Of a stretch of 64,000 bases of DNA, positions 53,461 through 55,319 are shown piece after piece. Both the position numbers and the translations under genes were made by a program. How positions within the stretch are numbered: position 1 is the stretch's first letter; the number at the start of each line of letters is the position of its first letter. The notes under the pieces are model-generated. The model was given only the letters and a program-made list of their open reading frames with translations. It ran no database searches and was not told the origin of the DNA. Source of the DNA: Mycobacterium phage prophiFSAT01-1; the sequence record BK061308.1; one strand, written 5' to 3'.

Positions 53461-53510
53461 AAACGCCCCCAACCGCATTCAGCTCGCGGTTGGGGGCGTT
53501 TTGTATTTCT
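53461..53510. terminator. bidirectional rho-independent terminator
   Basis: AAACGCCCCCAACCGC-ATTCAGCTC-GCGGTTGGGGGCGTTT with an A-tract upstream and T-tract downstream, between convergent genes. Confidence 0.7.
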
Positions 53511-53676
53511 ATTGCAATGTCTCGTAGGCGGTAGCTACTTGACCTTTCAGATCTTCGATCGTGTTCAGCGCCTCAAGGTGTGAGTCGATGAGTTGCCGCT
53601 CGCGTTCGGCGCTCGGGTGGTAGTCCATCTTGTTCACGACTCGTCGCCAACCGGCGAGCGTTTCGCGTTTGATCAT
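53509..53676 (-). CDS. small protein, last gene of the ARH operon
   Basis: TGATG overlap with the upstream gene on the minus strand. Confidence 0.3.
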   Translation of the reverse strand: MIKRETLAGWRRVVNKMDYHPSAERERQLIDSHLEALNTIEDLKGQVATAYETLQ

Positions 53677-54119
53677 CAGTGCCCCTCTCTGGAATCCAAT
53701 TCGGTTGTAATGTCGGAGATTGGGCGACTTCCCGCCTCGATTCGATCGTGGACGCAGACAGCCCCTACGCACGGGGGACCGTTGAATACCCTTTCGATCA
53801 GCCCTCCCAGTCGTGAGTCACCGGACGCCATGTTGCCTCCGAACATTGTCCACGTGCGCATCTGGAATGCCGAGAGCGGCACAAAATGCGGCAGCGCTCC
53901 GGGTAGATTTGGCCCGACAAGCACCACGGCGTTATCGCTCGTAGACTCCACAACCCGTGATCCCTCCGGTGGTGGAATCAGCTCACCGTTGCGGTCGCTC
54001 GCGATACCGACCAGAACCAGACGAGAGTGCCGCGCGCTGATGCCATTCAGGGTGCAGTCGGGAAAGTCCGCGGGTCGCAAGACCGTTAGTTCTAATCCCA
54101 TCATTGTGTCAGTCATCAG
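53676..54119 (-). CDS. hypothetical protein, translationally coupled to the ARH gene
   Basis: ATGA overlap with the ARH stop. Contains a RHSR…ESTS segment but no ExE. Confidence 0.4.
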   Translation of the reverse strand: MMTDTMMGLELTVLRPADFPDCTLNGISARHSRLVLVGIASDRNGELIPPPEGSRVVESTSDNAVVLVGPNLPGALPHFVPLSAFQMRTWTMFGGNMASGDSRLGGLIERVFNGPPCVGAVCVHDRIEAGSRPISDITTELDSREGH

Positions 54120-55126
54120 AACTCGTATCCTTCCGCTTCTGAAATCTCTTTCTGGTAGCGCGTTTCCAGCCGATCGAACCACTCGGCAGGCCATGGGTCG
54201 TCATACATCGCGCCGAGGATTGATCCCGCGATCGCCGCGATCGAGTCGCTGTCACCGCTCGTGACCGTCGCGCGACGTAGTGCCGCTATCGGGTCATTGG
54301 GAAACAGATCGATGCAGAACAGCGCGCACGCCAGCGCATCATGAGCGCGCCAGCCGGGGCCAGCGTGCTCACACGGATCGAGATCCCACGGATCAACACC
54401 AGAATCACGCAACTGGCGAAGTGCGATATCCGCGGTCAGTAGACGGTCCTGGACGAAGAGCAGACCGCGCGTCATGAACCGACGCACGCCGACCTCAGCG
54501 ACGACAGGGTGACCGTCGATCCAACGGGCAACATCCGTAAGTAGAGACGAATCATGATGTAGCCCAGTGCTTGCCAGATAGACCGCCTCTTCGAGCAGCC
54601 GCCCTGGGTAGATGCTTCGCGCATTGCGGATGATCGCTGCGGTCAAGAGCGATGCGGCGATGCCCGTCGCGCGCCCGTGGGTGGATGCTGCTTGCCACGC
54701 GGCGACCCCTTGCCAGCTGCGATCTTTGGTTACGAAAGCTGCTGGACTGACGCGCATTACCGTGCCGCATCCATCCGAGTTCAAAATAGTGGCCTTGGGC
54801 CAGGGGAAGTCGTTCTTCAACGCCCCGATAGCGCGCATGCACGTGTTGCCCGGTGCGCGGTTGTTGTCTGGGTCATCGAACCACTTGATCCACTGATCGA
54901 TGATCTTGACGCCAACCTCATCATCGGTCAATTCTTTTGTGTCGTGGAGACCTCGCGCGAGCGCGAGCGTCATCTGAGTGTCGTCGCTGATGATCAGCTT
55001 CTCAGGCAGCTCTGGGCCCATTAGCCCGTTTTCGGTGAGCTGAGCGTACGACCTGAACTCATTGCGGTAGCCCCACGCATCGCCATAGGCGACACCACGG
55101 AGCACGTTGGACCATTTACTAGGCAT
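54116..55126 (-). CDS. ADP-ribosylglycohydrolase (ARH/DraG/Tri1 family)
   Basis: N-terminal LRGVAYGDAWGYRNEF (GDAxG signature) and SDDTQMTLALA. Confidence 0.75.
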   Translation of the reverse strand: MPSKWSNVLRGVAYGDAWGYRNEFRSYAQLTENGLMGPELPEKLIISDDTQMTLALARGLHDTKELTDDEVGVKIIDQWIKWFDDPDNNRAPGNTCMRAIGALKNDFPWPKATILNSDGCGTVMRVSPAAFVTKDRSWQGVAAWQAASTHGRATGIAASLLTAAIIRNARSIYPGRLLEEAVYLASTGLHHDSSLLTDVARWIDGHPVVAEVGVRRFMTRGLLFVQDRLLTADIALRQLRDSGVDPWDLDPCEHAGPGWRAHDALACALFCIDLFPNDPIAALRRATVTSGDSDSIAAIAGSILGAMYDDPWPAEWFDRLETRYQKEISEAEGYEF

Positions 55127-55319
55127 TTGGTTTCCTCATATGGAAGGGGACGCACGTTTCGCACTCGTACTTTCCGGACTCATCAGCGACGTACACACCG
55201 AGAGGTGTGGTGTGCCGCTTCGCGCTGGGCCGCTCCTTGATGGCGAAACGCATGTACATACCCGAGTGCTCGTCGCACGTGACCATTCCGCCGTTATCGA
55301 TCCAGACCCTCTTGGCCAT
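55119..55319 (-). CDS. small zinc-ribbon-like protein, first gene of the ARH operon
   Basis: CDEH…CETC motif. Stop overlaps the ARH start by 8 nt. Confidence 0.4.
   Translation of the reverse strand: MAKRVWIDNGGMVTCDEHSGMYMRFAIKERPSAKRHTTPLGVYVADESGKYECETCVPFHMRKPNA

Follow-up and report, generated by a model that had tools for sequence, protein, structure and literature searches.

An ADP-ribosylhydrolase operon in a cluster MabR mycobacterial prophage and its possible relationship to a capsid-borne ADP-ribosyltransferase

The DNA analysed here (referred to below as the window) is a 64,000-nucleotide stretch of Mycobacterium phage prophiFSAT01-1 (BK061308.1), a cluster MabR prophage sharing roughly 92-95% identity with Mycobacterium phage McProf. 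On the minus strand, at positions 53509-55319, it carries four translationally coupled genes bounded by a triple palindromic operator and a strong terminator hairpin, and these features are as follows.

55344-55409, no strand: triple operator, three 16-bp palindromes of the form GGTAGA-N4-TCTACC
55119-55319, minus strand: Cys/His mini-protein of 66 aa with a CxxH...CxxC pattern, homologue of McProf gp87
54116-55126, minus strand: ARH, an ADP-ribosylhydrolase of the ARH/ARG superfamily (PF03747), 336 aa, homologue of McProf gp86
53676-54116, minus strand: partner protein of the phrog_6045 / TM4 gp76-like family, 146 aa counted from the ATG
53509-53676, minus strand: fourth gene, 55 aa, phrog_17448/11085
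53461-53501, minus strand: terminator hairpin, a G+C-rich stem of 17 bp and then a U-rich tail

The leftward operon of four ORFs with overlapping stops and starts described in the original prediction is thus present in full, with overlaps of 8, 1 and 1 nt, though the partner given there as 147 aa is 146 aa long. The 8-nt overlap between the mini-protein and ARH genes reads ATGCCTAG, while the ARH stop and partner start, and likewise the partner and the 55-aa gene, share a single nucleotide in a TGATG. Since the partner and the 55-aa protein match phrog_6045 (6.7e-36) and phrog_17448 (5.7e-10), respectively, and the codon changes in the 66-aa gene are mainly synonymous (four synonymous and no non-synonymous against McProf, six and three against prophiFSIL01-1), we do not regard these as chance ORFs. 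At the distal end, the hairpin (-33.2 kcal/mol, z -5.35 on folding) separates the operon from a convergent sliding-clamp gene, and the stretch is 82% conserved in McProf; the terminator scan missed it because its loop exceeds the limit of the scan, and it was recovered by folding. A sigma-70 promoter scan, which is uninformative for mycobacterial promoters, found no promoter.

The central gene had been assigned to the ARH/DraG family on account of the motifs GVAYGDAWGY and SDDTQMTLA, and its product is a genuine ARH, matching PF03747 over residues 9-308 with an E-value of 4.6e-49 (168 bits; cut-off, 26.2 bits). Among 31-36 homologues, D16, E23, D48, D49, H150, D292 and D294 are invariant and T50 and S295 nearly so, and the two metal motifs (S47-D48-D49-T50 and D292-x-D294-S295) align with those of DraG and Tri1. 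The catalytic glutamate is E23, which aligns with E41, the catalytic glutamate of ARH3. It also aligns with E15, the catalytic glutamate of the hydrolase BAH (PMC11699363). Hence, the loss of conserved metal-binding Asp and Thr residues that would have told against an ARH is not seen, as every catalytic and metal-binding residue is kept. The AF2 model (pLDDT 97.1, pTM 0.95) adopts the all-α ARH fold, and in Foldseek it gave TM scores of 0.65-0.73 to ARH3, ARH1, MJ1187 and 8za7_A, with E-values down to 1.5e-9. While the top structural match is the Ser-specific ARH3, DraG and Tri1 lead in the sequence searches, with DraG as the best match among solved structures (5.5e-9), and all of these matches are at low identity. 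We considered orthology to DraG and to Tri1, and rejected both because the scores against the NCBIfam equivalogs TIGR02662 (51.9 against a cut-off of 337) and NF041672 (39.3 against 490) fall far short. Judged by sequence comparison, ARH belongs to a distinct actinobacterial and phage subfamily, and from its residues and modelled fold it is predicted to be a catalytically intact hydrolase of ADP-ribose conjugates. Its substrate specificity is not readable from sequence.

An ADP-ribosyltransferase (ART) had also been said to reside on the same element, and this is borne out by a MuF protein with a C-terminal R-S-ExE ART, encoded, together with a small neighbour, on the plus strand.

26250-29789, plus strand: MuF (VG15)/kinase-like/ART polyvalent capsid protein (PF25310, PF03496), the presumed writer
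29809-30177, plus strand: 122-aa protein, encoded by the next gene after the MuF-ART

The ART domain (aa ~985-1179) matches PF03496 at 1.2e-15, and its R1054, S1097-T-S and E1143-x-E1145 are invariant in the alignment. In the PDB, its sequence comes closest to C2-I toxin, which is arginine-specific, and to Lmo0066, which supplies the ART of the 8za7 ART-ARH pair (8za7_B, 1.7e-3). Further upstream in the same protein lies a kinase-like domain (aa ~450-730), for which we obtained weak matches only (PI3_PI4_kinase at 4.6e-4, HipA_C at 0.07-0.2, and LepB_N). The 122-aa protein has no Pfam match, but two unrelated Gordonia phages encode homologues, Sixama gp76 (4e-12) and Cafasso gp135 (3e-7), both of which directly follow an ART-tipped protein. 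It is a candidate binding-type immunity protein or chaperone, and so a second antidote candidate that the original prediction missed. As a separate matter, the WXG100 toxin at the right end of the prophage was tried as a partner of ARH and rejected, as nothing was found in its favour and its C-terminal domain has no Pfam match; according to a published comparison, the MabR WXG100 cassettes differ between genomes (PMC9434293), whereas ARH is constant.

In prophiFSAT01-1 itself, the ART and ARH genes are not adjacent, being 24 kb apart on opposite strands. A survey of 50,697 phage records found ARH homologues in 26 and the R-S-ExE type of ART in 74, and 17 of the 26 ARH-carrying records, spread over four of six independent lineages, have both (12 directly and five as the Forza group, where the ART was verified in Forza gp80 only and is presumed for its relatives). 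Among 78 ARH loci in IMG/VR, 26 have a protein of 500-1700 aa ending in PF03496 at a distance of 0.45-4.7 kb, and in about 20 of these the gene for the ART-tipped protein precedes that for ARH by ~1 kb on the same strand. The small genes at the IMG/VR ART-ARH loci (67, 108 and 145 aa) differ from the 122-aa protein, an HMM of which found no counterpart there, and a reciprocal IMG/VR scan with the ART alignment recovered three MabR contigs only. That ARH might reverse the action of the phage's own ART, as had been suggested, is in keeping with the co-occurrence or adjacency of the two families in several independent phage lineages, and a link between ARH and the capsid MuF-ART fusion is thereby supported indirectly.

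The operator-like palindrome array noted beside the start of the operon also proved real. It occupies part of a 93-bp divergent intergenic region, with its copies at 55344, 55370 and 55394 (spacings of 26 and 24 bp). When up to two mismatches are allowed, GGTAGA-N4-TCTACC occurs eight times in the window against 0.88 expected, and at least eight matches were reached in none of 100 shuffles. The triple array lies at the same position in McProf, prophiFVLQ01-1, prophiFSQJ01-1 and prophiFSIL01-1, with the half-sites conserved and the spacers variable. Other copies and a candidate regulator gene are found to the right.

56256-56645, plus strand: homologue of McProf gp89, which is annotated as a helix-turn-helix protein; candidate regulator
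57199-57214, no strand: further perfect palindrome, intergenic, beside an AAA-ATPase gene
59264-59279 (perfect) and 59356-59371 (one mismatch), no strand: two further palindromes, upstream of the AAA-ATPase/gp92-like unit

The pair at 59264-59371 is also present in McProf, and the AAA-ATPase protein, whose gene is flanked by operator copies, has a Pfam match to nSTAND3 as well. Although the gp89 homologue has no Pfam match, an HTH gene stands directly divergent from the ARH operon in prophiFVLQ01-1 and prophiFSQJ01-1, and we infer that the gp89-like protein is a candidate regulator of the operator regulon. As to expression, the operon falls within the block of right-arm genes that are expressed in lysogeny. 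McProf gp85 and gp86, the homologues of the partner and ARH (95% and 97% identical, with the mini-protein at 100%; BK061309), are named among the genes expressed in lysogeny by RNA-seq in an account that draws on the primary study (PMC9434293 citing PMC8191103), which counts in support of the original prediction. McProf gp54, the MuF-ART, is not among the lysogeny-expressed genes listed in that account (PMC9434293 citing PMC8191103).

Several known systems resemble this arrangement in part. In a Bacteroides stercoris prophage, the toxin Bxa is neutralised by the ARH1-like hydrolase BAH and the small binder Bsi (Alexei et al. 2024, PMC11699363), so that a prophage polymorphic toxin with a C-terminal ART is accompanied by enzymatic immunity from an ARH-family hydrolase, which has a catalytic Glu and metal ligands, and by a small non-enzymatic neighbour of the toxin. 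By sequence and position, prophiFSAT01-1 has the same component types in MuF-ART, ARH and, as a candidate, the 122-aa protein. However, the Bxa hydrolase adjoins its toxin, whereas the prophiFSAT01-1 ARH is 24 kb away on the other strand with its own operator and has a lysogeny-expressed McProf homologue; moreover, the 122-aa protein is analogous to Bsi in position and size only, and the host phylum differs. In Tre1-Tri1 (Serratia T6SS) and the Listeria 8za7 pair, an R-S-E ART effector is likewise neutralised by an ARH-fold immunity enzyme, and 8za7 is matched twice here, chain B by the ART sequence and chain A by the ARH fold (TM 0.65), though in prophiFSAT01-1 the two genes lie apart and delivery would be by phage capsid rather than secretion system. 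We found no literature on the Listeria Lmo0066 pair. DraG shares its metal and catalytic motifs with ARH, but prophiFSAT01-1 is a mobile element with neither DraT nor a nitrogenase context. Finally, the NrtR/WYL ARG-centric modules (PMC9503650) have an ARH of the same subfamily, for which the proposed task is to erase phage-ART ADP-ribosylation. They differ in that prophiFSAT01-1 has no Nudix/WYL regulator, phosphatase, ARPP or chaperone gene (the proteins neighbouring ARH contain no Nudix/WYL or phosphatase domains), uses another palindromic operator, and carries the writer on the same element as the eraser.

On balance, we lean slightly towards a reading in which ARH is the enzymatic eraser matched to the ExE-type (arginine-type) ART of the capsid MuF protein. 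The virion would inject the ART along with its DNA, and the ART would ADP-ribosylate host proteins. In lysogeny, the prophage would make ARH from an operator-controlled leftward promoter, and the enzyme would hydrolyse the N-glycosidic bond between ADP-ribose and protein, which is its presumed substrate, so as to restore the targets in a new or established lysogen, this being the direction of protection that we envisage. It may also protect against the ART of kin or other ART-injecting virions and against that made after induction, with a second antidote of the binding type probably provided by the 122-aa protein, whose gene follows that of the ART. Speaking for this are the intact active site and fold of ARH, the R-S-ExE ART in the element, the co-occurrence and adjacency of the two families, the conserved operator, the experimentally tested precedent of Bxa, Bsi and BAH, and the lysogenic expression listed for McProf gp85 and gp86 but not gp54. 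Against it stand the 24-kb separation, opposite strands and different regulation, in which prophiFSAT01-1 is unlike the tested pairs, and the fact that ARH and ART also occur apart. In Phrappuccino, the closest phage relative outside MabR (48% identity), no PF03496-type ART is detectable in the whole genome, nor is an ART found in the 93% of the Trina genome examined, while cluster A mycobacteriophages show the reverse, having this ART type and no ARH. Moreover, the ART's own adjacent small protein might suffice as antidote.

The lysogenic expression of the McProf homologues would also suit an ARH that has no bearing on the prophage's own ART and shields the host from ADP-ribosylating effectors of competing bacteria or of unrelated superinfecting phages. 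An equivalent role has been predicted for ARG-centred modules on actinobacterial chromosomes (Iyer et al. 2022, PMC9503650), and a Streptomyces homologue (40% identity) is translationally coupled to a Nudix-NrtR regulator, which is the architecture proposed there as an anti-viral-ART system. Besides the right-arm position and the operator motif flanking the nSTAND3-matching AAA-ATPase gene, the ability of stand-alone ADP-ribosylhydrolases to protect against ART toxins (PMC11833690) is consistent with such general prophage defence. Nonetheless, we consider it unlikely, as it leaves the strong association of ARH with the phage's own ART unexplained, and no PADLOC-DB 2.0 model was matched by the four operon proteins or the divergent neighbour. 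The ARH family is also found in large Gordonia phages, and no integrase turned up in the parts of their genomes that were covered (about 40% for Sixama, one quarter for both Cafasso and Forza); these phages are possibly lytic, and therefore a defence role in lysogeny would be inapplicable there. Defence of this kind overlaps with an eraser for the phage's own ART rather than excluding it.

Alternatively, ARH could strip ADP-ribose marks or signals of host immunity (DarT-like on DNA, CmdT-like on RNA, or Thoeris-type signals) so that the phage can replicate, an option that the original prediction had raised for DarT-type systems and in favour of which nothing positive was found in prophiFSAT01-1. 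Elsewhere, Trina-like Rhodococcus phages combine an ARH homologue and no detectable ART with a NAMPT and PRPP-synthetase-like pair and a macrodomain protein, which resembles an NAD+/ADP-ribose counter-defence set, and phage NADAR orphan antitoxins offer a precedent (PMC11825919). Yet the McProf homologue is expressed in the lysogen and not during infection alone, nothing here points to a host defence gene, and the enzymes known to reverse base-linked ADP-ribosylation of DNA or RNA are of the macrodomain or NADAR type. In addition, an ARH-like enzyme showed no activity towards guanosine and 2'-OH RNA marks (PMC11833690), and phage ARG domains have been argued to prefer macromolecular protein conjugates (Iyer et al., PMC9503650). 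All told, we hold counter-defence to be rather improbable.

A HipA/PI3K-like, kinase-like domain accompanies this ARH clade in four mycobacterial elements. It is conceivable that ARH is tied to this effector domain rather than to the ART, or that it alters lysogen physiology (stress or drug responses) through endogenous host ADP-ribosylation, but we give either little credence. For the former, homologues of the MuF kinase-like domain are encoded at a distance of 4-6 kb from ARH both in Phrappuccino (gp195) and in M. sphagni and M. abscessus elements with no ART in the stretches examined; however, ARH has no known way to reverse phosphorylation, the kinase assignment depends on the weak matches given above, and the association may only mirror the shared ancestry of mycobacterial mobile elements. 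For the latter, McProf lysogens are reported to have altered whiB7 expression and aminoglycoside resistance (PMC8191103), a drug phenotype in which the part of ARH would be hypothetical.

To return to the operon and the favoured pairing of ARH with the MuF-ART, the three other genes appear from sequence comparison to be exchangeable passengers, or mosaic cargo, outside this mechanism. The 66-aa mini-protein has no Pfam or PHROG match, and while the residue pattern behind its earlier description as a zinc ribbon is there, the label amounts to that pattern and not to a family. Its homologues among phage records are confined to McProf and prophiFSIL01-1, and a search of 5.8 billion proteins gave a single cluster, 94% identical. 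Small Cys/His-rich proteins recur beside ARH genes in several elements, although they have no detectable homology to one another. The partner, by contrast with ARH, belongs to a family found in 63 phage records, almost all of them without ARH (TM4 and ZoeJ, for example). An exhaustive search recovered 192 clusters of relatives, none annotated, where a word-index search found only four. Its AF2 model (pLDDT 90.9) has no solved structural relative, and a BFVD fold search returned uncharacterised phage proteins only. The C-terminal 18 aa of the partner match the tail of prophiFSIL01-1 gp83, which we interpret as a recombination scar, the partner being by this evidence a mosaic insertion into the site. 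It was also considered as a divergent ART and rejected, given a predicted fold without an ART or solved match and family invariants to the contrary; of the R...STS-like residues remarked upon previously, the 'STS' falls in a stretch that is unconserved within the partner family. The 55-aa gene, in turn, is absent from McProf, where gp85 is followed at once by the terminator and, beyond that, by another small gene, gp84, the most highly expressed lysogenic gene of that phage (PMC8191103). Among the MabR prophages, ARH is the only constant gene of the operon, those up- and downstream differing in the four others, and so the four genes do not hold as a conserved functional unit. Despite the tight translational coupling, the single upstream operator region and terminator and the recurrent Cys/His-rich neighbours, one co-evolved four-gene system with the partner as divergent ART or cofactor is thus very unlikely, and is already largely refuted by these comparisons.

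A pairing of toxin and eraser is already known elsewhere, and what is new here is the link to the ART, the candidate 122-aa ART partner and the mosaic nature of the flanking genes. The gain in annotation is smaller, as the ARH gene is already annotated in McProf (gp86, ADP-ribosyl glycohydrolase). More speculatively, and with considerable doubt, the lysogen-expressed ARH could be a new type of prophage immunity determinant that erases the marks of ARTs injected from the capsids of superinfecting virions, kin or foreign, co-regulated through GGTAGA-N4-TCTACC with the AAA-ATPase unit; a further possibility is a functional tie of the ARH clade to the HipA/PI3K-like domain, which would point to an unrecognised effector-eraser relationship. 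Such immunity would act on a post-translational mark and not by attack on incoming DNA. If the pairing of ARH with the MuF-ART is true, the M. abscessus and M. chelonae prophages of cluster MabR would offer a tractable actinobacterial triad of writer, binder and eraser for a phage-injected effector, and would make it possible to test directly, for the first time, whether ARG enzymes counter viral ADP-ribosylation as predicted (PMC9503650). By neutralising injected ARTs, a lysogen could then withstand therapeutic phages that carry an ART, which would matter for phage therapy of M. abscessus.

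As originally predicted, the hydrolase gene belongs to a leftward operon of four ORFs with an operator array upstream. The coordinates, overlaps and palindromes are confirmed with small corrections, one being that the third ORF (the partner) is present but encodes 146 residues from its ATG, not 147.

Genes of the operon and of the transferase locus
55119-55319, minus strand: mini-protein, 66 aa, CxxH...CxxC pattern
54116-55126, minus strand: ADP-ribosylhydrolase (ARH), 336 aa, containing GVAYGDAWGY and SDDTQMTLA
53676-54116, minus strand: partner, 146 aa counted from ATG
53509-53676, minus strand: 55-aa gene
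26250-29789, plus strand: MuF-ART protein, 1179 aa, in three parts, ending in an ADP-ribosyltransferase (ART) domain
29809-30177, directly after the ART: 122-aa protein, WTNDxD motif

In operon order, the ORFs overlap by 8, 1 and 1 nt. Upstream, three 16-bp palindromes (GGTAGA-N4-TCTACC) lie within the 93-bp divergent intergenic region, and this motif was counted eight times in the window (≤2 mismatches) against 0.88 expected. At the other end, the operon is closed by a G+C-rich hairpin of 17 bp (-33 kcal/mol, z -5.35). The database matches of the ARH (Pfam, 4.6e-49), partner and 55-aa protein (PHROGs, 6.7e-36 and 5.7e-10), along with the mostly synonymous changes in the mini-protein gene between prophages, indicate that these ORFs are real genes. 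Both the region and the whole window share 92-95% nucleotide identity with McProf, a prophage of M. chelonae, and three M. abscessus prophages, also of cluster MabR, match the window too. In McProf, the counterparts of the mini-protein and the partner, gp87 and gp85, are hypothetical, and that of the ARH, gp86, bears the annotation 'ADP-ribosyl glycohydrolase', so the central gene was already annotated in this public relative; for gp54, the MuF counterpart, the annotation reads 'minor capsid and ADP-ribosyltransferase domain fusion protein'.

By sequence, the closest solved relatives of the ARH are DraG (5.5e-9) and then Tri1 (2e-6). Orthology with either was rejected, and the ARH is placed outside both orthologue groups because the NCBIfam equivalog scores fall far under the cut-off. 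Across 31-36 homologues, no variation is seen at D16, E23, D48, D49, H150, D250, D292 and D294, while T50 and S295 are almost invariant; these positions are the superfamily's catalytic Glu and two metal-binding motifs. Loss of the Asp/Thr ligands, which the original prediction had named as grounds against its reading, does not occur, the ligands being kept throughout these homologues. Moreover, the AF2 model (pLDDT 97.1) superposes at a TM of ~0.7 on ARH3, ARH1, MJ1187, and the ARH chain of the Listeria ART-ARH pair 8za7.

The MuF-ART protein combines an N-terminal VG15/MuF domain, a middle domain (aa ~450-730; window 27597-28439) with the kinase-like motifs WLVKG, GNHDSHAGQF, and GIDKGQAF, and a C-terminal PF03496 ART domain bearing R1054, S1097-T-S, and E1143-x-E1145. 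Among solved sequences, this ART domain comes closest to C2-I, an arginine-specific toxin, and to Lmo0066, which is the ART of 8za7. The 122-aa protein has no Pfam family and is homologous to Sixama gp76 (4e-12) and Cafasso gp135 (3e-7) of Gordonia phages, which likewise stand directly after ARTs. This conserved position makes it a candidate binding-type antidote, putatively an inhibitor or chaperone that is cognate to this type of ART. Similarity of the middle domain to PI3_PI4_kinase, HipA_C, and LepB_N is confined to weak matches. No other MuF-ART region is shared with Phrappuccino gp195 (41% identity; L009 14832-15659) or with proteins of 781-795 aa from M. sphagni and M. abscessus elements (L003 8610-9362; L015 10154-10894). 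All of these proteins are encoded 4-6 kb away from an ARH belonging to the window's own clade, and the stretches examined showed no ART.

Three lines of evidence (co-occurrence, neighbourhood, and tested precedent) link the ARH to the ART, with exceptions. Of 50,697 records of cultured phages, 26 have an ARH homologue and 74 have an ART of this type; both are present in the four MabR prophages, in four phages of Gordonia rubripertincta (the Cafasso group), in GMA2, and in Sixama. Forza carries a more divergent ART with R/STT/ExE motifs at the genomic position seen in Sixama. Counting Boopy, BlueNGold, and Mareelih as ART carriers by inference from their relative Forza, co-occurrence totals 17 of the 26 ARH records and 4 of 6 lineages. 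Each lineage has the ART at the C-terminal end of a large protein that is itself head-associated or whose gene lies near head genes. In uncultured viruses, scanning IMG/VR with the ARH alignment recovered 78 loci, 26 of which encode a 500-1700-aa protein with an ART end 0.45-4.7 kb from the ARH, about 20 of them ~1 kb upstream on the same strand. PF03496 and PF03747 were confirmed by Pfam in the examples tested, and the intervening genes (67, 108, and 145 aa) are conserved inside that ART-ARH group. As for the exceptions, no ART of this type is detectable in the whole genome of Phrappuccino, the closest phage relative outside MabR, or in the 93% of the Trina genome examined, and in cluster A mycobacteriophages the ART occurs with no ARH.

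One IMG/VR locus (L097 2716-5976) joins a Zeta-toxin kinase domain (9e-20) and a C-terminal ART (9.5e-21) in one polyvalent protein, 450 bp upstream of the ARH, and is a second 'kinase + ART + ARH' arrangement, its kinase domain being of another family. In Trina, the ARH gene is part of an early block that also includes ThyX and a DUF4185 hydrolase (L010 13995-21554). Some 5 kb from it, two genes are annotated as ribose-phosphate pyrophosphokinase and nicotinamide phosphoribosyl transferase, a pair that resembles NARP1, a phage pathway for NAD+ reconstitution; a macrodomain protein is encoded in this genome as well (L013 47332-47772).

The idea of a conserved four-gene unit did not hold, since only the ARH is constant among MabR prophages. 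In prophiFSIL01-1, the mini-protein is shared with the window and the downstream gene is different; in prophiFVLQ01-1 and prophiFSQJ01-1, genes on both sides of the ARH differ. The partner family (about 192 clusters, 63 phage records) belongs mostly to cluster K mycobacteriophages such as TM4 (gp76), and also to Brevundimonas, Sinorhizobium, and Methylophilales phages, none of which has an ARH of this type. The partner tail SRPISDITTELDSREGH (window 53676-53735) is 72% identical over 18 aa to that of gp83 (L019 4236-4289), which occupies the same site in prophiFSIL01-1 and is otherwise unrelated, and this shared tail, the scar of a gene replacement, shows that the partner entered the site by recombination. 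With numbering on the translation of 53676-54119, which runs one ahead of numbering from the ATG, the sharply conserved polar residues of the family are R15, D21, G94-G95-N96, D101, R103, and H124-D125-R126-x-E128. The predicted fold is confident (pLDDT 90.9) and has no solved structural relative; the partner is probably a small enzyme, but not an ART. The 55-aa gene is an insertion between partner and terminator, absent from McProf. The window lacks a counterpart of gp84, reportedly the gene that McProf expresses most highly in lysogeny (53385-53690 versus L001 7546-8010); prophiFVLQ01-1 gp85 is a homologue of gp84 (52% identity). Small Cys/His-rich proteins recur directly beside ARH genes in unrelated elements: Phrappuccino gp192 (CxxH...CxxC; L009 10984-11142), Cafasso gp117 (L006 10600-10806), prophiFSQJ01-1 gp89 (L018 2839-2973), and an M. 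abscessus 126-aa protein (L015 6059-6439), with no homology among these four by BLAST.

According to the MabR genome paper (PMC9434293, citing RNA-seq of PMC8191103), McProf gp85 and gp86 belong to the 16 genes expressed in lysogeny, a list from which the structural MuF-ART gene is absent. The triple operator upstream of the ARH is kept in all MabR prophages, with half-sites fixed and spacers free. Extra intergenic copies (57199-57214, 59264-59279, 59356-59371) surround an AAA-ATPase gene (Pfam nSTAND3 match; McProf gp91/92 region), the latter two also being present in McProf, and a further copy with one mismatch (26969-26984) falls within the MuF gene. This recurrence suggests that one regulator may serve several right-arm units, as a small regulon of lysogeny-expressed units. 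The annotated HTH gene directly divergent from the ARH operon in prophiFVLQ01-1 and prophiFSQJ01-1 is the obvious candidate. At the right end, a cassette (60893-63474) encodes a WXG100/EspC-like protein and a 750-aa toxin with EspA-like TPR repeats; neither the C-terminal ~285 aa of the toxin nor the putative immunity gene (60123-60956) has a Pfam match, and McProf's toxin is annotated as a Tde-like DNase.

We lean slightly towards a mechanism in which an injected ART writes and the prophage ARH erases. Here, the virion would inject the MuF polyvalent protein, its ART domain would modify host proteins, most likely at arginine, and the prophage-expressed ARH would strip the ADP-ribose marks. 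The ARH could shield lysogens from kin or other ART-carrying virions, permit recovery where infection ends in lysogeny, and protect the producer cell after induction, and the 122-aa protein may bind and block the ART until packaging. Gene anatomy, operator and terminator, intact catalytic sites, and comparative association come from our analysis, and lysogenic expression of the McProf homologues from the literature. Substrate, target residue, timing, and regulator are as we infer them.

In the tested precedent, two antidotes each neutralise Bxa, an ART toxin of a Bacteroides prophage: BAH, an ARH1-like hydrolase, and Bsi, a small binding protein (PMC11699363). Bxa, Bsi, and BAH each have a window counterpart (ART, 122-aa protein, and ARH), and by analogy with this triad and with Tre1-Tri1 the window system may work alike. 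However, the gene adjacency of Bxa-BAH and Tre1-Tri1 is lacking in the window, although it is found in relatives. ARG-centred modules with an NrtR regulator are predicted to counter viral ARTs (PMC9503650); the window is without their regulator and phosphatases, whereas a Streptomyces homologue shares the NrtR arrangement. This chromosomal ARH of Streptomyces spiramyceticus (40% identity; L014 7267-9002) has a 4-nt overlap with the stop of a gene for a Nudix and NrtR winged-helix regulator, and the pair adjoins scpA/scpB. Compared with the known pairs, the particular feature here is an ARH set apart from the ART and lysogenically expressed, and the proposed relation between the two lends itself to a clean experimental test.
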